A stretch of 64,000 nt of DNA from Bacteroidales bacterium. Lineage in GTDB: Bacteria > Bacteroidota > Bacteroidia > Bacteroidales > VadinHA17. Shown here piece after piece: positions 3,181 through 32,619 of this stretch (position 1 is its first letter; each line of letters starts with the position of its first letter). The DNA lies in the NCBI GenBank assembly GCA_049294275.1, contig JBAQCQ010000086.1, positions 34,160-98,159 of the forward strand. Direction: 5' to 3'. The notes under the pieces were generated by a model. That model saw nothing but the letters and a program-made list of their open reading frames with translations. It was not told the DNA's origin and ran no database searches. Made by a program: the position numbers and the translations under genes.

Positions 3181-4851
3181 TCAGAATAGTCCGCTTATCT
3201 GTCCCTTGTCATTGATGTCTATCTTCTCGGCAGACGGCACCGTTGGCAATCCCGGCATTCTCATTATTGCACCGGCAATGGGTACAATGAACCCGGCTCC
3301 TGATGAGAGCTCCACCTTACGTATGCGGATTGTGAAGTCCCTCGGCCTGTTGCGCCGGGCCTGGTCATCTGAGAGCGATTTCTGGGTCTTGGCAATGCAG
3401 ACAGCCAGATTCCCAAGTCCCAGGTCAGCAATCTTCTTCAGTTGTTCTTTGGCTTCGAGGGTGTATTCCACATTCTTTGCCCCGTACATCAGGGTGGTGA
3501 TTGTCTCAATCTTCTTTTCCAGAGGCCAGGAGAGGTCATACAACGGCGTGAAACAGTCGACGCATGCCTCAGTAGCTTCGATGACTGCCTCAGCAAGTTC
3601 GGCAGCTCCCTTTCCTCCGTCTGCCCAGGCGGTGTTTACAGCCACCCTGACATTATGTTCTTCGCAGTATTTCTTAAGCAGGTCAATTTCGGCCTGGGTA
3701 TCGGAGCTGAACCGGTTGACGGCAATCACCGGTCTGAACCCGTAATAATGCATGTTCTCAATATGCTTATCGAGGTTCTCAAAGCCCTTGGAAAGCGCCT
3801 CAAGGTTCTCGCCGGCCAGCTCGGAGAGCTTTACGCCGCCGTGATATTTCAGGGCCCTGATGGTTGCCACGATGACGACGGCATTAGTCTTTAATTTGCC
3901 TACCTGCGACTTGATGTTGAAAAACTTCTCGGCACCCAGCTCGCTTGCAAAACCGGCTTCTGTAACAACATAGTCACTCAGTGTGAGTCCCATCTTTGTT
4001 GCGAGAATGGAGTTGGTTCCCTGGGCAATGTTTGCAAAGGGACCTCCATGTATTATGGCAGGTGTGCCTTCGAGTGTCTGAACCAGGTTGGGTTTGAGGG
4101 CGTCCTTGAGAAGGGCGGCCATGGCTCCCTGAGCCTTCAGGTCACGTGCAAAGACCGGCTTCCCTGCATATGTGTATCCTATGAAAATGTTGCCCAGACG
4201 CTCCTTCAGGTCACTTATGCCCGTTGCCAGGCACAGGATGGCCATCACCTCCGATGCGGCCGTGATGTCAAAACCTGTCTCCCGGGGTACGCCCTGGGCT
4301 GTTCCGCCAAGACCAATTACTATATCCCTCAGTGCCCGGTCATTCATGTCAATAACCCTCTTCCAGGCGATCGTCCTTGGGTCAATACCCAGGTTGCTCT
4401 CACCGGCCTGAATATTGTTGTCGATCATAGCTGACAGAAGATTATGAGCCTTCTCCACCGCCGAGAGATCGCCGGTAAAGTGCAGGTTAATATCCTCCAT
4501 CGGTATCACCTGCGAAAAACCGCCTCCGGCAGCACCACCCTTTATACCAAAGACAGGTCCAAGAGATGGTTCACGCAAAACCACGGTAGCCTTTTTCCCA
4601 AGCAGGTTGAGACCCTGGGCAAGCCCGATCGATGTTGTGGTCTTTCCTTCGCCGGCAGGCGTTGGCGTAATGGCAGTGACAAGAATAAGCTTTGCCTTTG
4701 CCGCCTTCTTTTCGTCAATCAGGGAGAGGGGAAGTTTGGCTTTGTACTTTCCGTATAGTTCAAGGTCGTCTTCAGTCAGGCCAAGTTTTGCAGCAACCTC
4801 GGTTATGGGTCTGATAAAGGCACCCTGGGCAATCTCGATGTCTGTCTTCAT
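3181..4851 (-). CDS. fhs: Formate--tetrahydrofolate ligase
   Basis: 556 aa. It shows the typical FTHFS sequence throughout: [31 protein letters not shown] and [10 protein letters not shown]. Confidence 0.95.
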
Positions 4852-4943
4852 AGGTGATATGATTGGATGGGATAAATTTAAGATTTAATTCATTTTCCTG
4901 AGAACAAATATTTCTTGTGAAAGTTTAGTTGAACAAAACAGAT

Positions 4944-6329
4944 TTACAGTATTTCACTAAAGCCCGACTGGTTTTCCATGCGTATACGCCACGACTGCGG
5001 GTAACCATTGTTCAACCTGTTTCCGAGGTTGTTTACAAACCCCAGGGGAACCCCGCGGTATTTAACAAGGACCCTTCCCACAGGCATCGATACCGCAGGA
5101 TGCAGCTCAAGCCTGAGGTATGCAAGGGCCTCATCATACGAGAGTACATGCTCAGGCCAAGAACCGCGTTTTTGTTTCACGGACATTGCCAGGTCATGAG
5201 CCGGCACCAGGTCATCGTTCTTCAGCTCGCCGATCATGGTTCCAGACTTAATTACCGTAAGCTTTTCGCTCAGCTGGCTTATAACATCCCTGTCTGCGGC
5301 CAGGGCAATGATCCTGTTTCCCGACATGACCACCCTGTCACGGTTAAAATCAGCCAGTGGTTCCGATCTGCTGAATGCAAAGGAAGAGAGGCTGATGGCT
5401 CCTCTCCTGCCATCACTGTGTGCACCCCCGGGTCCGGCCGGTTTACGCACGGCAGCTATGAAAAAGCCCTCTCCGCGGACCCTCCCCGGATGAAAGGCAT
5501 AGCCATGAATTCCTCCGTAACTTATGACAGTGATGCCCCGGGTACCCTTAAGATCAGCAGTCAGAGGCTCCGATCCGGTAGTCTCCATGATCCACGAGAT
5601 GTTCTCCTCATTCTCGGCAGGATTGAAGGTACAGGTGGAGTATATAAGGATGCCTCCCGGTTTAAGGGCGGGCCAGACCTCCATGATTATCCGGCGCTGT
5701 CTGTCACTGCATAACCTTGCATTCTGCAGGGACCACTCCCTGACGGCTGCTGGATTACGGAACATACCCTCCCCCGAACATGGAGCATCTGCGACAATGA
5801 CATCAAAGAACCCCGGCAGGGAGGCGAAGCGTGCCGGGTCGTTCAGCGTCACAACAGTGTTGCCCATGCCCCATTTCGTGATGTTTTCCGCAAGGACAGC
5901 CGACCTGGTCCTGATTACCTCGTTGGCAACCAGCAGCCCGTCATCGCCAACGATCGCCGACAGGTGGGTGGCCTTTCCGCCGGGAGCACCGCAGAGGTCA
6001 AGAACCCGCAGAGAGGTCATGCCTGCGGTGAGCTGGCGGAAGAACTCCCCGGCAAACATGCCTGATGATTCCTGGGGATAAAATACGCCCGCATGAAAGA
6101 GAGGGTCAGGGGTAAAGAGCGTCTTCCCCGGCAGATAATAACCGTCATGCTCCCAGCTCACTCTTTCATACCTCGTAACGGGCTGGGGCCATTTGCGACG
6201 GTTTACCCTGACGGAGGGCTCAGCCGGCCGGCTCAGTGCATCAACAATACCGGCACTGTCAAAATATGACTGATTACTTATCCGTTCAAGGAATTCTTCA
6301 GGAAGCATCATCGTCTGATCTGGATGCAA
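4944..6329 (-). CDS. RsmB/RsmF-family (NOL1/NOP2/Sun) rRNA cytosine-C5 methyltransferase
   Basis: 461 aa. SAM-MTase motifs are VLDLCGAPGGKATHL and DVIVADAPCSGEGMFR, with the second catalytic Cys in LIYSTCTF. The start may instead be the MMLPEEF Met at about 6311. Confidence 0.85.
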   Translation of the reverse strand: MHPDQTMMLPEEFLERISNQSYFDSAGIVDALSRPAEPSVRVNRRKWPQPVTRYERVSWEHDGYYLPGKTLFTPDPLFHAGVFYPQESSGMFAGEFFRQLTAGMTSLRVLDLCGAPGGKATHLSAIVGDDGLLVANEVIRTRSAVLAENITKWGMGNTVVTLNDPARFASLPGFFDVIVADAPCSGEGMFRNPAAVREWSLQNARLCSDRQRRIIMEVWPALKPGGILIYSTCTFNPAENEENISWIMETTGSEPLTADLKGTRGITVISYGGIHGYAFHPGRVRGEGFFIAAVRKPAGPGGAHSDGRRGAISLSSFAFSRSEPLADFNRDRVVMSGNRIIALAADRDVISQLSEKLTVIKSGTMIGELKNDDLVPAHDLAMSVKQKRGSWPEHVLSYDEALAYLRLELHPAVSMPVGRVLVKYRGVPLGFVNNLGNRLNNGYPQSWRIRMENQSGFSEIL

Positions 6330-6361
6330 AGATAAACATTGAGTCCAAACCGTATAAAAGA

Positions 6362-6389
6362 ATACCGCCCCGGTCGTCCGGAGCGGTAT
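6362..6389 (-). terminator. Candidate intrinsic terminator downstream of the CDF transporter gene
   Basis: Hairpin ATACCGC-C-CCGG tcgt CCGG-A-GCGGTAT (7+4 bp stem). On the minus strand it is followed by TTCTTTTATACG. It lies about 180 nt after the stop at 6567. Confidence 0.45.
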
Positions 6390-6566
6390 ATAATAACCCC
6401 TAAAACCTAAACTGTCTTATAATGCGGTATTTGTGTGACAAAACGCTTACCAGACTGTAGTGTATGGGATACACTAATTAGGCAGTCCAAATGTATCGTT
6501 GATTTCATACGCCCGGGATGACATATCTCATGATTAGTTCCTTTTAACATTTTTTAGGGCAGGGAG

Positions 6567-7184
6567 TCAGGAGATGAGCTCGCGTCCAGAGTCCCGGAGC
6601 AACCCGAGCGACCATTTGATGATTACTGCGGAGCTGATGAGTGCAGCAATGGCATCAACATAGGGCAGCCCCCATATCATTGCAACAACAAGCCCGAGGA
6701 TGGCGGCCACGCTTGTAATGGCATCGGCAAGCACGTGAAGATAAGCAGCCCTGATGTTATTGTCCCTCTCCTCTTTGTCATGGTGGAGCAGGAAAGCACT
6801 GAGGATGTTCACCCCCAGACCTATGAATGCGATCATTATGGCTTCCCTGTATTCTATGACGCGCGGATTGATGAATCTCCCCACTGCACCGGCAATTATC
6901 ATGGCTGCAAAAATAAGCAGCATGAGCCCGCTGGTGTACCCCGACAGTGTCAGTATCCTGTCATTGCTACCGGTAAACGAAGGATTGGATGAGAGCTTCT
7001 GTACCAGGACATAAGCGGCCCAGCTCAGGCCTATGGCAAGCACATGAGATCCCATGTGTATGCCGTCTGCCATAAGAGCCATTGAGCCTGTCAGCCACCC
7101 GGCTATGATCTCTATAACCATAGTAACCGCGGTGAGTAAGACTACCCACTTGGTCCTTTTCCTGTTTCTTTCAATAGCTGTCAC
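6567..7184 (-). CDS. Cation diffusion facilitator (CDF) family transporter, short form with the membrane domain only
   Basis: 205 aa from a GTG start. CDF signatures are GSMALMADGIHMGSH (TM2 HxxxD-like site) and AAYLHVLADAITSV (TM5 HxxxD). The protein ends right after TM6, and I found no cytoplasmic C-terminal domain in any downstream frame. Confidence 0.8.
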   Translation of the reverse strand: MTAIERNRKRTKWVVLLTAVTMVIEIIAGWLTGSMALMADGIHMGSHVLAIGLSWAAYVLVQKLSSNPSFTGSNDRILTLSGYTSGLMLLIFAAMIIAGAVGRFINPRVIEYREAIMIAFIGLGVNILSAFLLHHDKEERDNNIRAAYLHVLADAITSVAAILGLVVAMIWGLPYVDAIAALISSAVIIKWSLGLLRDSGRELIS

Positions 7185-21916: not shown

Positions 21917-22621
21917 TCAGCTCACCACAAGGTTGAAAAAGAAGCCGAGTCTCGACAGTTCCTTGTACCGCTCCTCGTTGAACCTGTAGTACCAGGCCCC
22001 TTTCCTTGATGTCTCCCTCTCCTTTTCATCCTGCTTGTCAAGCAGGTTCATCGACAGGATTTTTTTCCTGAAGTTACGCTTGTCAATCGCTCTCAGGTAT
22101 ATGGCTTCATAGAGGTTCTGAAGCTGCACCAGGGTGAACTTCTCGGGGAGGAGCTCAAAGCCCACGGGCCGCACCTTGACCGTCTTCACCAGCTCCAGGA
22201 GGGCCCTGTCAACCATCCTTCGATGGTCGAAGATAAGTTCCGGTAGATTTGATATGGATCTCCAGTGAGCCCCGTTCTTCCTTCGTATAACCGGATCCAG
22301 TTCATGAATACCTATGAGTGCGAAGTAGGCCGTGGAGATCACCCTGGCGCCCGGATCACGTTCAACCTCGCCGTAGGTGTACAACTGCTCCATGAAGAGG
22401 TCAGAAAGGCCTGTAAGGCTGTACAGGACACGGGAGGCCGCATCGTCAAGGCTCTCCTTTTCCTGCACGAAACCGCCGGCAAGTGACCATTGTCCCAGGG
22501 CAGGTTCGAAACTCCTCTTTATCAGCAGCAGCTTGAGCTCCTTATCGGAAATATCGTATCCGAAGATGATGCAGTCTACTGCAGTGAAATGCCTGGGATG
22601 CCTGGAATAGAGATGGCTCAT
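21917..22621 (-). CDS. araR: NUDIX-domain transcriptional regulator (NrtR-like; Bacteroides AraR type)
   Basis: 234 aa with an N-terminal NUDIX fold ([27 protein letters not shown]) and a C-terminal winged-helix-like part. It sits between araA and araD, as in the Bacteroides arabinose cluster. Its start overlaps the araA stop (ATGA). Confidence 0.75.
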
Positions 22622-24105
22622 AGACCAATATTCAGATGGTAGAATATTTCATTCCACCTGAGTTCTTTCCTGAACTGTGCTATATCGCACTTTTCGTCAA
22701 TCAGGACGAATTCCGTACCGGTCATGGCAGCGAAGTCAGCCAGGTGTTCAGCCGTAAGAGACTGGCTGAATGATGTATGATGAGCGCCACCGGCATAGAT
22801 CCACGCTGTTGCGGCAGTCTTAAGGTCGGGATCCGGCTTCCACAGTACGCTTGCGACCGGGAGCTTCGGCATCGGCGGACATTCAACAACTTTCATCGTA
22901 TTCACAATCAGCCTGAAGCGATCTCCCATCTCTACCATGGATGCTGCAAGGGCCCTTCCGAGACTGGCTCTGAACACCAGTCTCGCCGGATCTGCCTTTC
23001 CTCCTATCCCGAGGGGATGCACCTCAAGCGACGGTTTGCCGGCGGCAATTGAGGGGCATACCTCAAGCATGTGAGCGCCGAGGATAGCCATGTTCTTCGG
23101 ATCAAGATGGTAGGTGTAATCCTCCATGAATGAGGTGCCTCCCTTAAGTCCTTCTGCCATCACCTTCATGGAACGCACAAGCGCCGCCGTCTTCCAGTCG
23201 CCCTCGGCACCGAAACCGTAGCCGTCGGCCATGAGCCGCTGTACGGCCAGGCCCGGCAGCTGAACCAACCCATGCAGGTCTTCAAAATTGGTTGTGAATG
23301 CCTTGAAGTTTCCCTTTTCAAGGAAAGAGCGCATTCCGGCCTCTATGCGTGCTGCCTCCTTCACTGCAGGTGCTGAGAGCACCCTTGCGGGGGCTTTGTA
23401 TTCATCTCCGTACTGTTTGATGAGCGTACTGACCTGCCTGTCAGACACTTTGCTGACGACATCAGCAAGGTCACCGACACCGTAACCGTGGACCTGGTAA
23501 TCAAGTTTGAGCTGCGCAGACACCTTGTTACCCTCGGTAACGGCAACGTCTCTCATGTTGTCTCCGAAACGCACCACCTTAAGTGACCGGGCATCAAGGG
23601 CAGCCATGGCAGCACGTGACCATGCACCTATTGCACTCAGCACCTCGTTGTCCTGCCAGTGGCCGACCACCACTTTGCGTTCAATCTTAAGCCTTGAGCA
23701 GATGTATCCGAACTCGCGGTCTCCGTGCGCCGACTGGTTCAGATTCATGAAATCCATGTCTATCTCAGACCACGGTATGTCACGGTTAAATTGTGTATGG
23801 AGGTGGAGCATCGGCCTGGTCAGCCTCTTAAGTCCCGGTATCCACATCTTTGCCGGGGAGAAAGTGTGCATCCAGGCAATAAGCCCTGCACATGCAGGGG
23901 AATTGCTGGCCTCCAGACATATTGATGAAATGGCCTCGGCAGTGGTAAGGACCGGTTTGAAAACCACCTTCACCGGTATTTTGTCTGATTTGTCAAGGGC
24001 CATGGCTATGGTCTTCGAATCCGCATTTACAGTTCTGAGGGTCTCTTCACCATAAAGATGCTGGCTTCCGGTGATAAACCAGAGTTCAACGTTCTTATTG
24101 TTCAT
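22618..24105 (-). CDS. araA: L-arabinose isomerase
   Basis: 495 aa. It shows the AraA pattern throughout: [38 protein letters not shown] and FMEDYTYH. Confidence 0.95.
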
Positions 24106-24138
24106 TATAATAAATGTATCTTATTTATTGTCAATGCT

Positions 24139-25794
24139 TTAATTCCAGAAATAGGCATAGAATGCCAGTATCACGGCAATTATTAAGCCGGAAGCGATCA
24201 CATCCCACTTATTCCAGCTGGCACGGGTGAGAGCTTTTTGCTCAGCTGAGGCAGACCCGAGATAAAGCCCGGCGATCTTCTTCTCATCAATCCGCGGGGT
24301 GAAGATACTGACAATTATCATCGTGACAATGACTATTGCAAAGTTGACGATCTCGTAATGCAGCCAGTTTGTTCCTACAAAAATCTGATATACCGAACCG
24401 TCCGCGTCAAGAAATCCTTTGAAAACGGTAGCGAGCAGGCGGGCCATGCCGATGGTGAAACCTGTCAGAAGGCCTGCGAGGCCGGCAGCAGGGGTCACTT
24501 TCTTTGAAAGGATACCAAGAAGGAAAGCTCCGGCGATGCCCGGAGCAAGCAGGGACTGGACATCCTGAAGGTATGCATAGAGCACCTTCCCTATGCCTTT
24601 CATGACAGGTATCCAGAGGATCCCCAGTATGACCACAACCACAGTGGCTATCCGTCCTACCCTGACTAGCTCAGCCTCGGGTGCATTTGGCTTGTATTTC
24701 TGGTAAAAGTCGATGGTAAAGAGTGTTGCCGATGAGTTGAAGAGAGACGCGAGGGAACTCATAAGGGCAGCAAGAATTCCGCCAACGACAAGCCCTTTAA
24801 ATCCCATGGGCAGCAGTTCCTTCACAAGTGTCGAGAATGCCGAGTCTGAACTCGTAAGATGAATTACACCCTGCTGGTTGAGAGCATAGGCTATCATACC
24901 TGGAATAAGGAAAATAAATACGGGCGACAGTTTCAGGAAACCACCGAAAATGGCACCGCGGCGTGACTGCGTCTGGTCGCGCCCTGACAGCACACGCTGA
25001 ACAATGTACTGGTCTGTGCACCAGTACCAGAAACCGATGATGGCGGACCCCAGAAGCACTCCGGTCCAGGGGTAGACCGGATCCTTGGGCGACCTGATGA
25101 GCTGCGTCATGGTGTCACCGAATTCATTGACGGGTACGGCACGGCAGATATGCATCAGTTCGTCCCATCCGCCCACTTTTATGAGCCCTGCTATCAGCAC
25201 CGCAATAGACCCGAGCAGCAGGATGGGGGTCTGCAGGACTGAAGTCCAGAGAACGGCCTTCATGCCTCCCAGGGCAGTGTATATACCGGTTACCACGACC
25301 AGCCCTATGGCGCTGATCCAGAAGAAATCAATGCCCCAGACCGATTCAATCCCGAAGACATCTTTGAAAACAACTCCTCCTGCATATACGGTGACAGCAA
25401 CCTTGGTCAGGACATAACTCACGAGGGAGATTATTGAGAGCACTGACCTGGATGCCTTATTATACCTTCTCTCGAGGAACTCGGGCATTGTGAAGACACC
25501 GCTTCGTGCGTAGAAGGGTACAAACAGCCATCCGAGGAGCAGGATCAGCCATCCGTGCATCTCCCAGTGTGCCATTGCCATCCCTGATGATGCACCGGCG
25601 CCGGCCAGACCCACGAGGTGCTCAGATCCGATGTTCGATGCAAAGATAGAGGCGCCGATTGCCACCCAGGTGGCATCACGTCCGGCAAGAAAGTAGTCGG
25701 TAGAGGTCTTATTCTTTGATCGGACGGAAAAAATAATAAATACGATCAGCGTGAGGACAAACGCCCCCAGTACGATCCAGTCAAGTACTTGCAT
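24139..25794 (-). CDS. Sodium:solute symporter (SGLT/SSS family), probable arabinose/pentose uptake
   Basis: 551 aa and polytopic. SSS motifs are YFLAGRDATWVAIGASIFASNIGSEHLVGLAG and TMPEFLERRY. It is the first gene of the ara operon. Confidence 0.88.
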   Translation of the reverse strand: MQVLDWIVLGAFVLTLIVFIIFSVRSKNKTSTDYFLAGRDATWVAIGASIFASNIGSEHLVGLAGAGASSGMAMAHWEMHGWLILLLGWLFVPFYARSGVFTMPEFLERRYNKASRSVLSIISLVSYVLTKVAVTVYAGGVVFKDVFGIESVWGIDFFWISAIGLVVVTGIYTALGGMKAVLWTSVLQTPILLLGSIAVLIAGLIKVGGWDELMHICRAVPVNEFGDTMTQLIRSPKDPVYPWTGVLLGSAIIGFWYWCTDQYIVQRVLSGRDQTQSRRGAIFGGFLKLSPVFIFLIPGMIAYALNQQGVIHLTSSDSAFSTLVKELLPMGFKGLVVGGILAALMSSLASLFNSSATLFTIDFYQKYKPNAPEAELVRVGRIATVVVVILGILWIPVMKGIGKVLYAYLQDVQSLLAPGIAGAFLLGILSKKVTPAAGLAGLLTGFTIGMARLLATVFKGFLDADGSVYQIFVGTNWLHYEIVNFAIVIVTMIIVSIFTPRIDEKKIAGLYLGSASAEQKALTRASWNKWDVIASGLIIAVILAFYAYFWN

Positions 25795-25876
25795 GATTTT
25801 TTCGTGTTAGGTTAAATATTGAATGTCTGTTACCTTCTACAATACTTGATTCTCTACGAGCAACCACCACTATTGG

Positions 25877-25899
25877 CTACTGCCTAATCCCTACTGCCT
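25877..25899. promoter_or_regulatory. Direct repeat CTACTGCCT x2 (14-bp register) upstream of the ara operon; candidate operator
   Basis: CTACTGCCT occurs at 25877-25885 and 25891-25899, 83-117 bp upstream of the symporter ATG (25794). An AT-rich near-palindrome TGTAATATATACA lies at about 25937-25949. Confidence 0.25.
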
Positions 25900-26091
25900 G
25901 TTGTGCAAGTTATATAATTATTTAAATGTAATATATACACTTTTTGTAAAATATTTTAAAAAAAACAATTCTTTCATCTGTTCTTCATGTTTGAATGAAT
26001 AATTTTGCTGTGTATCAGTCCGATAATAAGAAGAGAGGTCTGACTGAAAAAAAAACGAAAAGATCTTCGGTCAGATAAAACCGGATAAATT

Positions 26092-26559
26092 ATGCATACG
26101 ATTAAAAAGATATTGCTGACGATGACCGGTATTCTGGTCATCTCCGGTGTCATAAATGGACAGGAGGCGAAGGTAAAGCCTGACTCGGCCACAGTAAGAA
26201 CCCGGGAGAGGGAGCAGCAGGCACAGGAGCAGAACCCGAACAGGGAGCAGGCTCAGAACCAGGGTCAGGAGCAAAACCAGGCACAGGATGGGAAACAGAA
26301 CCAGGGTCAGGAACAGGCTCAGAGCCAAAGCGGAAAACAGAACCAGGACCAGGGGCAGAATCAGGCGATGACGACCGGTCAGGCAAAGACCCAGAACCAG
26401 GGCACGGGTGCATCAGGCGTTAAGAAGGTGCAGAGCGCCAGGCCCGACTGGAGCAAGTCCCGCGGAGCACGCCCCGCCTCTGTTGAGCGTCCTTCAGGAT
26501 CCAGGATACCCAAGGGCGCCGGAAAGCCCGGTGCTGCAAAGGGTCCGGGAAGAAGGTAA
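26092..26559 (+). CDS. Secreted Gln/Asn/Glu-rich low-complexity protein with a basic Pro/Gly/Lys tail (paralog of 29555..29965)
   Basis: 155 aa. The signal peptide is MHTIKKILLTMTGILVISGVINGQ. A stretch of about 70 aa of QEQNQAQ-type repeats follows. The tail is RPDWSKSRGARPASVERPSGSRIPKGAGKPGAAKGPGRR. Codon-periodic DNA repeats support the coding frame. Confidence 0.6.
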   Translation: MHTIKKILLTMTGILVISGVINGQEAKVKPDSATVRTREREQQAQEQNPNREQAQNQGQEQNQAQDGKQNQGQEQAQSQSGKQNQDQGQNQAMTTGQAKTQNQGTGASGVKKVQSARPDWSKSRGARPASVERPSGSRIPKGAGKPGAAKGPGRR

Positions 26560-26582
26560 AGACATTAAAAACGGACACTGTA

Positions 26583-27461
26583 ATGGAGAGGGTAGCATTG
26601 ACGACTGTGATTGCCTGCGGAATTATGTTGCAGGCTTTCATTATTAATGCACCGGCGCAGCCATCAATAAACGCCCAACTTGACACTTCAACTGTTGCAG
26701 ACAGGAATCCCGTACATTCATTTTATGCCGGGGCCGGTTACGGAAGCAACATGGTTTACCTCGGTACGACCATGTCACAGGATCACGGTTTTGGGTACAC
26801 ATCATTCTCCTACGGGCTTAAGGATAAACTATATCTCACCGCCACTGGTTACACCATTGGCGGTTTCTCTCCATTCGTGGCTTTCTCCAGCGTCGGTCTG
26901 AGCTTCAACCATCCATTTAACTCATGGTTCGACATTAGCGCCGGCCTTTCGCGGTACATTGTGGCGGAATCGCTCAGGGACACACTCTTCAGCAATTTCA
27001 CCTATGCTGATGCCACCCTTGGATTCGACTGGAGGATACTGTACTCTAAGGTTTCCCTGGGAGGACTCTTTGCTGACGGCGGCCAGTTCTACCTGCAAAC
27101 AAGACATTCAAGATACTTCGAGACACCATCATTTGCCGGTGACAAGGCATTCTTCTCCTTTGATCCGTACGTCAATGTTCTATTCGGGAAAATGATCAGC
27201 ATTGAAACCACGGAAGGCACGACCACGACAGTATCACCCGGATACAGACATTGGAAAAACCGTAATCCGGGATCGTCAACAACCTATACTGAAACCTTTG
27301 GCCCTATGGAGATCGACTTCGGACTGCCCATAGCCTTCAGTTATGATTTCTTTACCATCGAGATAGAACCCGGCTATATTCTGCCCTTCTATACAGATAC
27401 CGGGACGACCGGCATGAAAGGTTTTCTGTTTATGGCCAGCGCCTTCTTCAGGATTTTTTAA
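26583..27461 (+). CDS. Putative outer-membrane beta-barrel protein (family unknown)
   Basis: 292 aa with a signal-like N-terminus ending APAQ. Aromatic/Gly-rich strands alternate (FYAGAGYGSNMVYLG, GFGYTSFSYGL). The C-terminus ends in Phe (FMASAFFRIF), as in OMP sorting signals. Confidence 0.55.
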   Translation: MERVALTTVIACGIMLQAFIINAPAQPSINAQLDTSTVADRNPVHSFYAGAGYGSNMVYLGTTMSQDHGFGYTSFSYGLKDKLYLTATGYTIGGFSPFVAFSSVGLSFNHPFNSWFDISAGLSRYIVAESLRDTLFSNFTYADATLGFDWRILYSKVSLGGLFADGGQFYLQTRHSRYFETPSFAGDKAFFSFDPYVNVLFGKMISIETTEGTTTTVSPGYRHWKNRNPGSSTTYTETFGPMEIDFGLPIAFSYDFFTIEIEPGYILPFYTDTGTTGMKGFLFMASAFFRIF

Positions 27462-27470
27462 CTTTGGGTA

Positions 27471-28151
27471 ATGAACGTCCTGATTGTTGAAGACGAAAGG
27501 AGCCTCGCGAATGAGATAGCATCCTATCTGAAGAAGGAAAACTTTCTTTGTGACGTGGCTTATTCCGGTAATGATGCATCAGAAAAGATCTCCGTCAACC
27601 TCTACGATTTTGTCCTTCTCGACCTGGGTCTTCCCGATTATGACGGGCTTGATCTGATAAAGGAAGCACGGATTAACAACATCGAGGTCTCATTTATCAT
27701 TATCACTGCCCGCGGTGCCGTTGAAGACAGGGTCAGGGGGCTGGACCTGGGCGCAGATGACTACCTGTCAAAACCCTTTGCCCTGGTTGAACTTCATTCA
27801 CGGATAATGGCAGTGGCAAGAAGAAAGTTCCAGATTACCTCTCCCGACATAAACCTGGGTGAATTTGTCATGGAGATACAGGCCCGGAGGCTGACACATA
27901 GCGGCCGGGAGGTAGAGATCACAAGAAAAGAATTCGATCTTCTGCATTATCTTGTTATCAATCAGAACAAGGTACTGGCCCGCCACCAGCTATATGAACA
28001 CATCTGGGGTAACACCCTTGATGACCAGTACGACAGCAATTTCATCGACGTTCATATCAAGAATTTACGTAAGAAACTTAATGCCCACGCACCCTCTCCC
28101 TGGCTCGAGACAGTCAGGGGCGTTGGTTACAGGGTAAGCACTGACAGGTAA
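27471..28151 (+). CDS. OmpR/PhoB-family response regulator
   Basis: 226 aa. The receiver domain reads MNVLIVEDE...DFVLLDLGLPDYDG...KPF. The winged-helix domain reads LTRKEFDLLHYL...VHIKNLRKKL...TVRGVGYRV. Confidence 0.93.
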   Translation: MNVLIVEDERSLANEIASYLKKENFLCDVAYSGNDASEKISVNLYDFVLLDLGLPDYDGLDLIKEARINNIEVSFIIITARGAVEDRVRGLDLGADDYLSKPFALVELHSRIMAVARRKFQITSPDINLGEFVMEIQARRLTHSGREVEITRKEFDLLHYLVINQNKVLARHQLYEHIWGNTLDDQYDSNFIDVHIKNLRKKLNAHAPSPWLETVRGVGYRVSTDR

Positions 28152-28166
28152 CGTGAATCAAGGAGC

Positions 28167-29492
28167 ATGATGAAATTACAGACAAAACTTGCCCTCTTCA
28201 ACCTGCTCTCAAAACTGGTCTTCTCTGCACTTTTCATCGGTTTCCTGCCCCTTATCATCGAACGGATAAACACGCGCCAGACTGACAATGAGCTGATAAA
28301 CAAGAGGGAAGAGGTCATTGATCTGATCACCCGGGTGGGAATAGAGCCATTCATCACTGCCGAATCAGAGAACGGCTTCGGCAGTTACAATATATTAAAG
28401 GAGGAATTTATCAGTCTGGAGCGGATTGACCTGTCAGAGGACTGGAACTATATCGAAGTAACGCAGAGACTCATTGATGACGAAGCCATTGTCTACCGTG
28501 TTCTCAACTATTCCTTTAAGATTGATGGCCAGACCTATCTTCTTGAGATAGGGAAAAGCCTGTCGAGCATTACCTATGGGGCAAGAAATATCAGAAGTGT
28601 CATCCTGATCTTTCTTGCGATATTCATTTTGACCACCCTCCTCTCCGACCTCTTCTATACAGCACGCATACTCCGGCCACTCAGGATCATAACCGGGAGG
28701 CTTAAAGAGTCCTCATCGTCTTCACTCCTCACAACAGGTCCGGTAATAACCTCAACGGAGGACTTTATTCAGCTTGACCATACCCTGAGGGAGCTGATGA
28801 GAAAAATCGAGGATCTTTTCCGGAAGGAGAAGGAAATTACCGTGAACATCTCCCACGAGCTTATGACTCCCGTTTCCGTCCTCCGGAGCAAACTCGAAAA
28901 CATGCTCCTCCAGGATAATATTGATCCTGTTATTGAAGCAGGGTTAGAGGAGTCACTCAGGACACTGCACCGGCTGAAGACCCTGGTAAACTCACTGCTG
29001 ATGATAGCGCGTATTGAGAGCAGGCAGTATCTCAGAGAGGATACGGTAGAACTGGAATCACTGCTGAACGAGGTCGTGGAAGAACTGAGGCCAATAGCTG
29101 AAGATTCGGGCGTGATCATTTCCCTGGACTGCGGAAGCAACTTTGCTTTCAGAAACGCAAACAGGTCCCTGATATTCTCAATGTTCTACAATGTGGTGAA
29201 CAATGCAGTTAAGAATACTCCCGAAACCGGAAGAATAGATATAAGCGGGAAGGAAAGCGAGGGAAGGTATAAAGTCTCAGTCTCTGATACCGGCAGGGGC
29301 ATGTCAAAAGAGCAGATTGACAGGCTCTTTTCGCGATTCAGCACCAGGTTTGATCCGGCAGGCGACAGCACCGGAATCGGGCTCGCCATCACAAAATCAA
29401 TAGCAGATTTTCATGACATCGCCGTAAGGGTGTTGTCTGAACCCGGAAAAGGCACGCAATTTATTTTCTTTTTCCCCGTAAATTCATTATAG
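28167..29492 (+). CDS. Sensor histidine kinase (2 TM, about 120-aa periplasmic loop, HisKA+HATPase_c)
   Basis: 441 aa. The boxes are H box NISHELMTPVSVL, N box NVVNNAVKNT, G1 VSDTGRGM and G2 GIGLAI. It lies 15 bp after the response regulator gene. Confidence 0.92.
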   Translation: MMKLQTKLALFNLLSKLVFSALFIGFLPLIIERINTRQTDNELINKREEVIDLITRVGIEPFITAESENGFGSYNILKEEFISLERIDLSEDWNYIEVTQRLIDDEAIVYRVLNYSFKIDGQTYLLEIGKSLSSITYGARNIRSVILIFLAIFILTTLLSDLFYTARILRPLRIITGRLKESSSSSLLTTGPVITSTEDFIQLDHTLRELMRKIEDLFRKEKEITVNISHELMTPVSVLRSKLENMLLQDNIDPVIEAGLEESLRTLHRLKTLVNSLLMIARIESRQYLREDTVELESLLNEVVEELRPIAEDSGVIISLDCGSNFAFRNANRSLIFSMFYNVVNNAVKNTPETGRIDISGKESEGRYKVSVSDTGRGMSKEQIDRLFSRFSTRFDPAGDSTGIGLAITKSIADFHDIAVRVLSEPGKGTQFIFFFPVNSL

Positions 29493-29554
29493 CTTCATTT
29501 TCACGGGGTTATTTTTGATCTGTTATTTGATAATAAACCAAAAACAGTACCAGA

Positions 29555-29965
29555 ATGAAAAAGGAAATTCTTTTGGGCGCAATAGCACTTCTTTTAAGTG
29601 CCGGCGTTATGGCACAGACCTCAGAACCTGTCCAGACACAGTCAAAAACCAGGAAACAGCTCAGGATTGAAGCCAGGGAACAGGCCAGAGTTCAGGATCA
29701 GACACAGAGCGGTGATCCGATCATGACTCAGACCCAGACCAGGACTCAGAATCATGGAGAGGTTGTAAGTGAGACAGCAAAACAGGCTCAGACCCAGACC
29801 GAAGGAGGTGTTGGTGAGGTGGTCAGGGAGCAGGCCAGAATGAAGGGTGAGCCCCGGAAAGCAATGAAGCAGGCCAATAAAGCTAACAAGAACAAGGGTG
29901 CAGCAAAGAGTGTCAGGACAAACCGTCCTGCAACCGGCAAGGGAACCGGCACGGGCAGAAAGTAA
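29555..29965 (+). CDS. Secreted Gln/Thr-rich low-complexity protein with a basic tail (paralog of 26092..26559)
   Basis: 136 aa. The signal peptide is MKKEILLGAIALLLSAGVMAQ. A Q/T/E-rich region follows (REQARVQDQTQSGDPIMTQTQTRTQNHGEVVSETAKQAQTQTEGG). The tail is RTNRPATGKGTGTGRK. Confidence 0.6.
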   Translation: MKKEILLGAIALLLSAGVMAQTSEPVQTQSKTRKQLRIEAREQARVQDQTQSGDPIMTQTQTRTQNHGEVVSETAKQAQTQTEGGVGEVVREQARMKGEPRKAMKQANKANKNKGAAKSVRTNRPATGKGTGTGRK

Positions 29966-29984
29966 ACAATACGAAAAGGCTGAG

Positions 29985-30016
29985 AAAAAAACCGGCGGAG
30001 AGATCTGCCGGTTTTT
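29985..30016. terminator. Bidirectional intrinsic terminator between convergent genes
   Basis: AAAAACCGGC (29987-29996) and GCCGGTTTTT (30007-30016) form a perfect 10-bp stem with a 10-nt loop. An A-run lies on one side and a T-run on the other. It sits between the stops at 29965 (+) and 30023 (-). Confidence 0.85.
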
Positions 30017-30022
30017 ATATTT

Positions 30023-31237
30023 TCACTTTATAATGAGGCCCATGGGAACACGCAGGAATTGAGCCCTGTATGCTTCGACATCCTCAAAGATATCCCTCAC
30101 ATCCAGAGAATTGACACAGTAGGTGACCAGCAGCCGGTCATCATCAATGTACTGACCGTGAGCAAGGGCATTGTAGGTGATGATATGGTTATCCGGATCA
30201 GAATCCGCCTCCGGGGCATGGTAGATGAACCTTTTATTATGAAAATCCTTATGCGGAAAATCTGAGATGTAAGTGTAAATATCATCTCCTGCCCTTTCCT
30301 GTGAAAGCAGGATATACTTGTCCCCGTACCTGAAGACACTGAACTGCTCCGACACGGAGATGTCAATATCGAGTGGTGCCGACCTGCTGATATCCTTATC
30401 CCACTCTTTCCCTGTAAAAAATTCCCAGCCCCGGTAAAAGTCAGCACTTTGCATGGAGACACGGGCAACGTGGATCTCCGAATGACCGGGATTGTTTCTC
30501 GTGCCGTAGATATAGAGGTAGCCACCGTCTGCCATGACACAGTTCCCGAAGTCGATCAGGCTGACAGGATAGTTGATCTCAACCCTGTGGGTCTCAAGAT
30601 GACTGAAACCGGGGAAGGTAAAAGACAGGAGATCAATATGGGAGATGGCGAAGGTAAATATGTTCTTCACCACCGTGTCAGCCGGCCGGTCGTTTTCACT
30701 GTCGTAAAAAGCCTGAATAGCGGCTGTGTCAGGCACATTTATAAGGCTGAGGGCAAAGACATGAACGGTATCGTTCTTCACAAAGCCGTGGCCGGGCCAG
30801 TACCAGCGGTAAGTCGAATCGCCGGGTTCATTTACCGGCTCCATCAATGTTTGCGGCCTCGCCCAGGTACCCCTGTATATCGGTCTCACAAGGGTCCTGT
30901 TACTGTCAATCAACACGAAAGCATTGCGCAACATCGTGGTCAACGTGTCCCTGGTACCGTTCACCACCTCGCCAAGAAAACAGTCGCCCAGCATGAAGAG
31001 TGACGATCCATCGGGCATCAGAACGGAGAAGAGGCCGTCAGCTCCTGTGATGCCTCCGGAATCAGAGTAGAAGAGTGAGCGAAAATCCTCATCAGCGGTG
31101 ACATGACCCGTTGTCGTTCGTCCCGGCTTGCAGGCTGATATCAGAAGAGCCAGAGATATACAAAACGCCAAGGATGCTTTCAGACTGGCTGTTCTGTTGC
31201 TGATAGTTCTTATTTTGAAGTTTCTGTTCTCTTTCAT
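30023..31237 (-). CDS. Lipoprotein, beta-propeller-like putative glycoside hydrolase (DUF4185-like by memory); paralog A
   Basis: 404 aa with lipobox LLISACK. It shares blocks with 31285..32619 and 35608..37008: GADGLFSVLMPDGSSLFMLGDCFLGEV, YRWYWPGHGF, GGYLYIYG, GWEFFTGKEWDKD, YNALAHGQY...LLVTYCVNS and YRAQFLRV. Confidence 0.55.
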   Translation of the reverse strand: MKENRNFKIRTISNRTASLKASLAFCISLALLISACKPGRTTTGHVTADEDFRSLFYSDSGGITGADGLFSVLMPDGSSLFMLGDCFLGEVVNGTRDTLTTMLRNAFVLIDSNRTLVRPIYRGTWARPQTLMEPVNEPGDSTYRWYWPGHGFVKNDTVHVFALSLINVPDTAAIQAFYDSENDRPADTVVKNIFTFAISHIDLLSFTFPGFSHLETHRVEINYPVSLIDFGNCVMADGGYLYIYGTRNNPGHSEIHVARVSMQSADFYRGWEFFTGKEWDKDISRSAPLDIDISVSEQFSVFRYGDKYILLSQERAGDDIYTYISDFPHKDFHNKRFIYHAPEADSDPDNHIITYNALAHGQYIDDDRLLVTYCVNSLDVRDIFEDVEAYRAQFLRVPMGLIIK

Positions 31238-31284
31238 GGCATCCGGATTTTTGGATCTGTGATCATGGTTACGTAATTGACCTC

Positions 31285-32619
31285 TTACTTCTGACTGTAC
31301 CTTACTCTGATAAACCTGGGGTGGTAGATGGTTGCATCCTTTTGTATATCTTCCCAGAAATCAAGGGTGATGGTATTATAGCTCACCAGCAGCTCGCCGG
31401 GGCCTGAGAGATGATAATGAGCCTTGGCATTGTATGGGAGCAGTCCTTTCTCAGCGTATTCGGGACATGTATATACCTCGTTGATATCCCCGAACGGACC
31501 GGCAGGACTTTCACCCACGCGGATGCCGATCTTGTCGGAGATGCCCATCACGGTAAAAGTCAGCAGGAACCTTCCGTCATCCGTGGGAGTTACACTGAGT
31601 TCGTTGGACACACCATCAGTGATCGGTGCAATATTCTCAACCCCTTTCACCCAATCCTCGCCGTTCCAGAATCTCCACGCCCCGATCTTTTCAATCCTGC
31701 CCGGCTTCGTCCTTGCAGCTAGAAGGGATTTGCGTCCCTCAGCAATTCCGTAGATGTAAACATATCCGTCAGGAAAGGGGGCTCCGGCGCTTCTGGTGTT
31801 GACCAGAATTCCGCTGCCAAAATAAACCCTTCCATATTCAGGATGGACAAAGCCCAGCCCAGTTGGGAATTGCTCATAGTGTGACATATTCTCCAATGAT
31901 GGTTTTCTTATCCTGATCAGGGCAACGTTGGTGGCCTCGAAATCAAAGACATTCGGACCGGTCTTGTGTACATGGTAGGCAAAGATGTAAAGGGCGTTCC
32001 GTTTCGCCCGGTTCACGAACCCGTCGCCCAGCCAGAAGTATTCTCCCTCCCTGCTGTTCTCATTATCAGGCACGAAATATGACACCGGATTGCCGTTCCG
32101 GTCCCGGTTATATTCAAATATCACCGAATCCCTTACGGGAAGAGTGCCGCTCATCAGGGCTATTGAGTTGTTAACCATTACATTACCCGGCTGAGGGACA
32201 CCATCTTTCACCTCTCCGATATATGTGTCACTGAAAATAAAAAGCGTCTTCTTCTCCTCCGCCCTACCCTCTTCAATCCCATCAAGGGGAATTGAGAAAA
32301 TACCGTCGGCGCCGAACCATCCGGAGGTGCGCTCCATAAGGGCGGTCCATTCAGGTGCCGGCTCAGCGGTGAAGGTGAGCGGCTTCAGGGGTTGGGATAT
32401 GCTTCTGCCGTTGTTGGCACCAGGTTCAGTTCCGCATCCACCTGTGATCAACAAGATCAGCAGGGCAATCAGCTCCCTTGTTCCTGTGACCAGCAGATAA
32501 AAGAACCCCCCTTTTCCCGTGATTGGCTGGGCAAAAATCTCCCGTTTTCTCATGACCGGCAGTGAAAATATCCTACCTGTTCTCGTGACCGGCGGTGCAA
32601 TATTCTCCTTCATTCTCAT
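31285..32619 (-). CDS. Lipoprotein, same beta-propeller-like family; paralog B (N-terminal region made of 11-aa repeats)
   Basis: 444 aa with lipobox LITGGCG. Shared blocks are GADGIFSIPLDG...LFIFSDTYIGEV, EYFWLGDGF, DGYVYIYG, AWRFWNGEDWVKG, YNAKAHYHL...LLVSYNTIT and YHPRFIRV. The start is ambiguous (32619 or the MRKRE Met at 32553). Confidence 0.55.
   Translation of the reverse strand: MRMKENIAPPVTRTGRIFSLPVMRKREIFAQPITGKGGFFYLLVTGTRELIALLILLITGGCGTEPGANNGRSISQPLKPLTFTAEPAPEWTALMERTSGWFGADGIFSIPLDGIEEGRAEEKKTLFIFSDTYIGEVKDGVPQPGNVMVNNSIALMSGTLPVRDSVIFEYNRDRNGNPVSYFVPDNENSREGEYFWLGDGFVNRAKRNALYIFAYHVHKTGPNVFDFEATNVALIRIRKPSLENMSHYEQFPTGLGFVHPEYGRVYFGSGILVNTRSAGAPFPDGYVYIYGIAEGRKSLLAARTKPGRIEKIGAWRFWNGEDWVKGVENIAPITDGVSNELSVTPTDDGRFLLTFTVMGISDKIGIRVGESPAGPFGDINEVYTCPEYAEKGLLPYNAKAHYHLSGPGELLVSYNTITLDFWEDIQKDATIYHPRFIRVRYSQK
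32461..32592. repeat. Four tandem imperfect 33-bp repeats at the 5' end of paralog B
   Basis: The units are 32461-32493, 32494-32526, 32527-32559 and 32560-32592. Each ends in (G/A)TGA(C/T)(C/T)(A/G)G, and the GTGACC-like cores are spaced exactly 33 bp apart. U3 versus U4 is 23/33 identical. They are translated as PVTRTGRIFSL/PVMRKREIFAQ/PITGKGGFFYL/LVTGTRELIAL. Confidence 0.8.

Follow-up and report, generated by a model that had tools for sequence, protein, structure and literature searches.

A candidate self-regulated two-component module of the Bacteroidales envelope encoding an unnamed β-barrel family and small secreted proteins with basic tails

To our knowledge, envelope-stress sensing is poorly mapped in the Bacteroidota, where the Cpx and Rcs systems of the Enterobacteria have not been described. 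We report here on a locus from a Bacteroidales bacterium of the VadinHA17 lineage, found within a stretch of 64,000 nucleotides which we refer to throughout as the window (GenBank assembly GCA_049294275.1, contig JBAQCQ010000086.1, positions 34,160–98,159), in which the genes of a response regulator and a sensor histidine kinase are preceded by those of a small secreted protein (S1) and an outer-membrane β-barrel (BB), and followed by the gene of a second small secreted protein (S2; Table 1). The locus combines a two-component system (TCS) with envelope accessory proteins of its own, drawing on two uncharacterised protein families, and we read it as a self-regulated envelope module of uncultured Bacteroidales whose outputs are barrels and basic-tailed proteins, a reading to which we give about an even chance of being right.

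Several described systems resemble the locus in part. The enterobacterial CpxRA/CpxP (Spy) system also places an OmpR-type regulator and a periplasm-sensing kinase beside a small secreted protein carrying the regulator's box, and such a placement would make the small protein an output and a potential feedback element. There is, however, no sequence relationship: neither S1 nor S2 matches PF07813 at E ≤ 1 or contains an LTXXQ string, nor does PF07813 match any of 38 S1-family members at E ≤ 0.01, and with DUF4890 also without a match to either protein at E ≤ 1 (hmmscan), the homologies which had been considered when the locus was first read from its sequence alone (the sequence-only reading) fall away. 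Furthermore, CpxP is a folded helical dimer whereas S1 is predicted to be a disordered chain with a Pro/Gly-rich cationic tail, CpxP is divergently transcribed whereas S1 lies within the operon, and in the module described here an outer-membrane barrel is obligatory. The pairing of RcsF with outer-membrane proteins in the Rcs phosphorelay (PMC4942254) offers a second likeness should S1 thread through the barrel, as in both cases a charged unstructured segment of a small envelope protein would occupy a barrel lumen while a phosphorelay reads the envelope. RcsF differs in being a lipoprotein with a folded C-terminal domain (S1 has neither Cys nor lipobox) and in using general porins rather than a dedicated barrel encoded alongside, and the module has no IgaA-like component. 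The nearest conceptual relative within the Bacteroidota that uses a barrel in signalling is the Dma anti-sigma family (PMC10927553), in which an outer-membrane β-barrel likewise sits inside the signalling unit for the envelope, but there a single polypeptide reaches across both membranes and controls an ECF sigma factor, whereas here barrel, small protein and TCS are separate. As judged by sequence comparison, the module belongs by descent to none of these three systems.

The composition of the module became clear from its relatives. A scan with a BB profile, taking one genome per species, recovered 75 loci, all from metagenome-assembled genomes (MAGs) labelled as Bacteroidales or Rikenellaceae, and we compared the five proteins of the window with the open reading frames (ORFs) of these loci, which are named L001, L002 and so on. 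BB is followed by the regulator in 64 loci from species-level Bacteroidales MAGs, with identities of 70–91% for the regulator, 54–88% for the kinase and down to 40% for BB, and the same gene order was seen on two independently fetched metagenome contigs. S1 lies directly before BB in all 57 loci which have at least 600 nt of upstream sequence, so that the expected conservation of a small ORF beside the TCS holds for this protein. It does not hold for S2: where 600 nt or more are available beyond the kinase gene (51 loci), S2 comes next in 28 and is missing from the other 23, and the bracketing of the system by two small proteins is thus a feature of one sub-lineage and not of the remainder. 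The place of S2 is taken in eight of the 51 loci by a lipoprotein with DUF4382 and CarboxypepD_reg domains (Pfam; 271 aa in L076:7050–7865), which occurs in the distant lineages L051, L053, L054, L062, L064, L069, L075 and L076, in three by another lipoprotein of ~350 aa, and in the rest by a convergent next gene. The conserved unit therefore consists of the four genes S1–barrel–regulator–kinase, with S2 as a lineage-specific addition, and as far as our searches show the module is limited to uncultured Bacteroidales. Because S2 is not conserved with the system and has a promoter-like box of its own, the five co-transcribed genes of the sequence-only reading are better described as a four-gene operon followed by a separately controlled fifth gene.

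Our main finding concerns the regions upstream of these genes. When the regions upstream of S1 are aligned, an island with the pattern TTCATCnnTTCTTCAT...TAnnTTTG is retained in otherwise unalignable DNA, and TAnnTTTG is the Bacteroides -7 promoter consensus (PMC4747536). The direct repeat TTCAT-N6-TTCAT has exactly two matches in the window, one before S1 and the other before S2, both followed by TAnnTTTG exactly 11 nt later, and the complete 35-nt pattern (TTCAT-N6-TTCAT-N11-TAnnTTTG) retains only two matches, both on the + strand, even when two mismatches are allowed (0.05 expected by chance). When no more than one mismatch is allowed, the 77 loci (600 kb) yield 87 matches, all of them on the gene strand and none on the opposite strand, and every one is upstream of S1, S2, an S2-like ORF, a BB paralogue or the DUF4382 lipoprotein. 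A slightly relaxed pattern, again without an opposite-strand match, places the box at 55 of the 57 S1 genes and at the end of the kinase gene in 36 loci. It also finds the box upstream of the BB paralogues in L055, L068, L070, L071, L072 and L077 (that in L073 is found with at most one mismatch). The DUF4382 lipoprotein is preceded by an exact box in L053, L054, L075 and L076 and by one with a single mismatch in L062, L064 and L069, which may give a clue to what DUF4382 does.

Activators of the OmpR/PhoB family classically bind direct repeats which adjoin a promoter and have a period of 11 bp, and the most economical reading is that the encoded regulator would bind the TTCAT repeats. The recurrence of the same box at a fixed distance from the -7 box before S1 and S2 favours the earlier suggestion that the small proteins are outputs of the TCS, and we consider that they are probably outputs of this kinase–regulator pair. 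We searched the literature for the TTCAT repeat and for any similar system in the Bacteroidota and found nothing relevant. The module provides a four-gene unit in 64 species-level genomes together with a predicted operator by which the regulon can be read in related genomes. Closer relatives (L002–L047) also share a distal element ~60 bp upstream of the TTCAT box (Table 1), which is absent in distant relatives and may serve another regulator or belong to the promoter as an upstream element.

The two-component pair itself was confirmed by Pfam. The regulator has Response_reg (PF00072, 7e-25) and Trans_reg_C (PF00486, 5.9e-25) domains, as is typical of the OmpR/PhoB family, and the kinase combines HisKA (PF00512) and HATPase_c (PF02518) with hydrophobic segments at residues ~12–32 and 144–164, as in transmembrane sensor histidine kinases. 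The loop enclosed by these segments is ~110 aa, close to the periplasmic loop of ~120 aa proposed earlier, and has a net charge of -7; it is conserved and acidic in all 51 orthologues (net charge -3 to -12, median -8), and in a comparison with the Protein Data Bank (PDB) the kinase match was limited to the cytoplasmic core, leaving the sensor loop without a solved relative. Neither protein reached an NCBIfam equivalog cut-off. The best model for the regulator was PmrA (189 bits against a cut-off of 330), while the best full-length models for the kinase were the PorY family (NF052314, 204 bits against 350), known from regulation of the type IX secretion system (T9SS), and the heavy-metal sensors of the CusS/SilS/CopS kind (TIGR01386 cztS/silS/copS, 155.5 bits against 292.55). 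We rejected the kinase as a member of either family on these scores, and in the case of PorY also because the adjacent partner is an OmpR-type DNA binder rather than PorX; genes for the T9SS or for metal resistance are absent from the vicinity. It should be noted that the PorY model spans kinase residues 3–420, including the sensor region, and the loop may be distantly related to that of PorY.

S1 begins with a signal peptide (residues 1–23) cleaved before a Gln, which fits the Bacteroidetes Q-rule (PMC5837995), and continues through a variable linker to a tail at residues ~108–155 (26413–26556). An alignment of 59 orthologues retains the signal peptide, a short D(T/S) motif, a linker of 45–111 aa and a near-invariant tail of ~45 aa with the consensus VK(K/Q)(V/I)x(S/G)ARPD(W/M)SKARGARPxS(V/I)xRPSGSRIPKG(A/V)GKPGGAKGPG(K/R)R. 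The tail has a net charge of +8 to +12 across the family (+11 in this S1), and the Gln content of the linker varies from 4 to 40%, so that it is the cationic tail and not the Gln-rich stretch emphasised by the sequence-only reading which characterises the family. A search with the 50-aa tail in 1.84 billion representative proteins returned 111 matches, all but one in small proteins of 68–198 aa and nearly all at the extreme C-terminus (the exception is a 1581-aa protein matched over six short stretches at 33% identity), from which we conclude that the tail is exclusive to this small-protein family.

Two features could be taken to suggest that the small ORFs have arisen by chance from low-complexity DNA and that the cluster is just a TCS beside a porin: the exact S1 and S2 sequences are absent from a collection of 15 billion proteins which does hold the regulator and kinase of the same contig, and the public annotation of L001 calls a 122-aa ORF on the opposite strand (L001:4332–4700) where S1 lies. 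We find this scarcely credible. The reading frame is held despite changes in linker length in 57 loci, database searches return 76 S1-family and 40 S2-family matches in addition to those of the tail, and the codons of the S1 tail show 1075 synonymous and 422 nonsynonymous differences from 50 orthologues, an excess which indicates that S1 is a real gene under purifying selection. On these sequence comparisons, chance is already contradicted by the S1 alignment, the tail search and the codon differences taken together. We take the missing entries and the opposite-strand call instead to indicate that such small genes are under-annotated and, as S1 and S2 appear to be missed by routine annotation, similar partners may be under-counted elsewhere.

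The conserved tail might also be seen as a signalling peptide, released from S1 and sensed by the kinase in a quorum-type positive feedback, given that it is the only conserved part of a precursor-like gene which shares a presumably autoregulated operon with a kinase and a regulator and has a direct-repeat box at its promoter. This we regard as very unlikely, since the tail is near identical across dozens of species whereas pheromones diversify, no protease or processing site is evident, and we know of no peptide-autoinduction system of this type in the Bacteroidota.

S2 shares its architecture with S1, as had been recognised earlier: the signal peptide is cleaved ahead of a Gln, the middle is of low complexity and the tail is basic (net charge +12 in S2). 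The description of the two as paralogues, however, could not be maintained. Alignment of the S1 and S2 profiles with hhalign covered 29 signal-peptide columns and nothing else, while BLASTP gave E = 0.001 over 61 low-complexity residues, and with no detectable homology in the mature regions the two are not demonstrable paralogues. In this genome S2 is made up of a signal peptide, one SGDPIMTQTQTRT unit, a NHGEVVSETAKQ module and a basic C-terminal core ending ...NRPATGKGTGTGRK, and members of the wider family carry 0–3 copies of SGDPIMTQTQTRT, with or without an NHGxxVSETAKQ module, and share a basic C-terminal core ending ...NRPATVKGTGAGRK, to which minimal members of 84 aa are reduced. The protein evolves through the gain and loss of modules. 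Its last 45 codons differ from those of 23 orthologues by 327 synonymous and 284 nonsynonymous changes, and like S1 we count it as a real gene. AlphaFold2 gave no confident fold for S2 (pLDDT 57, pTM 0.19, with low-confidence helices), and S1 consists by composition alone of a low-complexity linker and a Pro/Gly-rich tail. Against Pfam and NCBIfam the two proteins returned only matches far below the cut-offs (G0/G1 switch, presenilin, DUF4148, phasin and chryseobasin precursor), noise which comes from low complexity or from the signal peptides.

The 402 database relatives of BB are without exception annotated as hypothetical and have no Pfam domain, with the named sources being Bacteroidales MAGs throughout. 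Its conservation is unusually high (mean column identity of 65%), and includes an invariant Gln at the predicted signal-peptide cleavage site. The mature protein has a net charge of -6. An AlphaFold2 model built from 63 sequences predicts a barrel of 12–14 strands (pLDDT 74.8, pTM 0.69), and with its signal peptide, closed antiparallel barrel and C-terminal aromatic residue BB is predicted to be a generic outer-membrane barrel. Foldseek comparison of this model with the PDB returned outer-membrane barrels only, at TM-scores of 0.33–0.56 and 8–13% sequence identity: PcoB, with the top E-value, FapF, the autotransporter β-domains of Hbp, EspP and BrkA, and LpxR, OmpG, Tsx and NanC. The BB profile had no match to PDB sequences at E ≤ 10, and scans of Pfam and NCBIfam gave nothing above noise. 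We therefore regard BB as an outer-membrane barrel of an unnamed family; it has no profile match to the PcoB/CopB, FapF, LpxR, OmpG, Tsx or autotransporter families and the Foldseek scores (TMq 0.33–0.49) are alike for all of them, so the modelled similarity is generic and singles out no specific family. A VIAC string near the N-terminus raised the question of a lipoprotein, which was ruled out as the Cys is not conserved. Two unnamed families come with the module: that of the barrel, which is highly conserved, and that of a secreted protein conserved only in its cationic tail of 45 aa.

The appearance of FapF and autotransporter β-domains among the best Foldseek matches (TMq 0.46–0.49) brings to mind an export pair, in which the barrel would be a FapF-like conduit for unfolded small proteins that form a surface coat or matrix and the TCS only times their production. 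As in the Pseudomonas amyloid export system FapF/FapC, a barrel of similar size is encoded here beside Q/N/T-rich and presumably unfolded secreted proteins with variable-length linkers. The candidate cargo of this module has Sec signals and is predicted to be disordered (from the model of S2 and the composition of S1), and its small-protein and barrel genes adjoin in three independent contexts. However, the TM-scores to FapF are no higher than 0.5 at ~10% identity and are generic, with PcoB, LpxR, OmpG, Tsx and NanC scoring alike; no PDB chain is matched by the sequence profile of the barrel; the locus has no Fap accessory genes, amyloid repeats, N-terminal coiled coil or plug, and is controlled by a dedicated TCS; and S1 has no amyloid-type imperfect repeats but a Pro/Gly-rich basic tail unlikely to form amyloid. 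On balance we think export of this kind improbable.

The PcoB match, together with the heavy-metal sensor family as second-best match of the kinase (155 bits), might instead indicate a Cu/Ag resistance module similar to pcoB, pcoRS and pcoE, in which the barrel and a CusS-like kinase would be joined by a disordered periplasmic 'sponge' under separate promoter control. The position of S2 after the kinase with its own promoter does resemble that of pcoE/silE, and SilE is described as a disordered periplasmic protein (PMC5008109). We nevertheless hold out very little hope for this possibility: the kinase scores far short of the cut-off for that family (292), Pfam gives no CopB/PcoB match for the barrel, motifs of the His, Cys or Met-rich kind are absent from S1 while S2 contains a single His and few Met, and no oxidase, efflux or chaperone genes are found nearby.

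A further source of evidence is a second class of BB paralogues which have no adjacent TCS and often occur in genomes that also hold the linked copy. Three of these unlinked paralogues (L056, L061 and L074) are flanked by S2-like small proteins, which links the small proteins no less closely to the barrel than to the kinase. This bears on a design that is well known from regulator-controlled feedback proteins such as CpxP and MgrB, in which S1, and perhaps S2, would be periplasmic proteins that bind the kinase sensor loop and damp or tune signalling, with the barrel merely co-regulated. S1 does share a presumably autoregulated operon with the kinase in all 57 loci, and its tail (+11) faces a conserved acidic loop (median -8). 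Nonetheless, the lack of any PF07813, Spy or DUF4890 match or LTXXQ motif, the loss of S2 from 23 of 51 loci, the pairing of S2-like proteins with BB paralogues far from any kinase, and an S1–barrel adjacency that is never broken all count against it, and we consider feedback alone unlikely while giving it serious attention.

Our preferred reading, of a self-regulated module with barrels and basic-tailed proteins as outputs, can then be set out as follows. The kinase would read a periplasmic or envelope cue through its acidic ~110-aa loop and phosphorylate the OmpR-type regulator, which would bind TTCAT-N6-TTCAT. As this repeat ends 11 nt short of the -7 box, a regulator bound there would be placed as one expects of an activator that contacts RNA polymerase. 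Binding would turn on the regulator's own operon and a small regulon, including S2 in this genome and, in relatives, the DUF4382 lipoprotein which replaces S2, the unlinked BB paralogues and S2-like proteins. The small proteins would be Sec-exported, largely disordered outputs with the cationic C-terminal tail as the functional part, and the tail might dock in or thread through the acidic barrel, whether as a plug, as an outer-membrane anchor for the disordered chain or for passage outward; the tail might in addition feed back on the acidic loop of the kinase. We infer that S1 is a physical partner of the barrel, and favour this partnership because S1 is never separated from BB and because S2-like proteins pair with BB paralogues that lack a nearby kinase. 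Docking is also supported by the nearest PDB folds, which are 12–14-strand barrels and include the polypeptide-conducting FapF and autotransporter β-domains.

Several points weigh against this. The Foldseek TM-scores of 0.4–0.56 are generic and single out no polypeptide-conducting barrel, the argument for tail–barrel contact is one of gene adjacency and charge, and charge complementarity suits the kinase loop as well as the barrel. As the loop is conserved and acidic in all orthologues, feedback by the tail on the kinase stays a live rival to the partnership. No small protein is encoded beside the barrel paralogues in L055, L060 and L063. That the regulator would bind the repeat is deduced from position and conservation, and paralogous regulators might use the same box at unlinked sites. 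Should tail and barrel indeed pair, an outer-membrane protein would be coupled to a kinase in a manner that is new; otherwise the module still offers a well-delimited regulon from a lineage abundant in the environment. A more ambitious version, by analogy with RcsF and its outer-membrane partners, would make S1 and the barrel a trans-outer-membrane sensor in which the tail or chain threaded through the barrel reports the state of the outer membrane or lipopolysaccharide (LPS), or the periplasmic width, with the kinase loop reading free versus barrel-engaged S1. We think this speculative and rather doubtful, though if true it would be the first outer-membrane-to-kinase sensor of envelope integrity to be described in the Bacteroidota, and one made from two families without known relatives.

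The five ORFs are all on the + strand in the order and at exactly the positions which the sequence-only reading had assigned to them, with gaps of 23, 9, 15 and 62 nt, and a terminator-like hairpin was found where it had placed a strong terminator after S2 (Table 1). We searched the window for further copies of the barrel or small proteins and found none, and an Rfam scan of 25700–30100, which includes the S1 leader hairpin, gave no match near any gathering score.

Table 1. Positions of the genes and regulatory features of the module within the window.
Feature	Position	Strand	Details
Distal conserved upstream element TGCAAGTTATATAAT..TTTAAATGTAATATATACAC	25904–25940	+	Shared by the closer relatives
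Box 1, direct repeat TTCATCTGTTCTTCAT, presumed binding site of the OmpR-type regulator	25973–25988	+	
TAATTTTG, -7-type box matching TAnnTTTG	26000–26007	+	Separated from box 1 by 11 nt; 85 nt ahead of the S1 ATG
Hairpin of 11 bp within the predicted 5' leader of S1	26038–26076	+	-16.6 kcal/mol, z = -2.76
S1, small secreted protein	26092–26559	+	155 aa
BB, outer-membrane β-barrel of an unnamed family	26583–27461	+	292 aa; signal peptide, C-terminal FFRIF
OmpR/PhoB-family response regulator	27471–28151	+	226 aa; PF00072, PF00486; MFZ2287676.1
Sensor histidine kinase	28167–29492	+	441 aa; two transmembrane segments, conserved acidic loop of ~110 aa
Box 2, direct repeat TTCATTATAGCTTCAT	29483–29498	+	Overlaps the kinase stop codon
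TATTTTTG, -7-type box	29510–29517	+	Separated from box 2 by 11 nt; 38 nt ahead of the S2 ATG
S2, small secreted protein	29555–29965	+	136 aa
Intrinsic-terminator-like hairpin followed by a T run	29987–30016	+	13 bp

The module is flanked on both sides by sugar-metabolism genes on the - strand which have no relation to it (22618–25794 and 30023–32619). Upstream are an L-arabinose isomerase and a sodium:solute symporter, which are also found upstream in the relatives L001 and L002, and downstream are two DUF4185-like proteins, the position of which is taken in relatives by BipA/TypA. Since these unrelated neighbours are conserved on one side and variable on the other, the module is an independent insert between them.

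We note lastly that in L068, L070, L071, L072, L074 and L077 a longer BB paralogue of ~340 aa, itself preceded by a TTCAT box, is followed by an uncharacterised secreted protein of ~540 aa which ends in a Ser-rich basic tail (...SSRR; in L077 the protein is encoded at 5202–6809, after the BB paralogue at 3938–4960). Downstream of this gene there is a PadR-like gene, called by eye and not by a domain scan, and then an ORF of ~480 aa. The longer BB paralogue and the ~540-aa protein may represent a second module built on the same barrel family.

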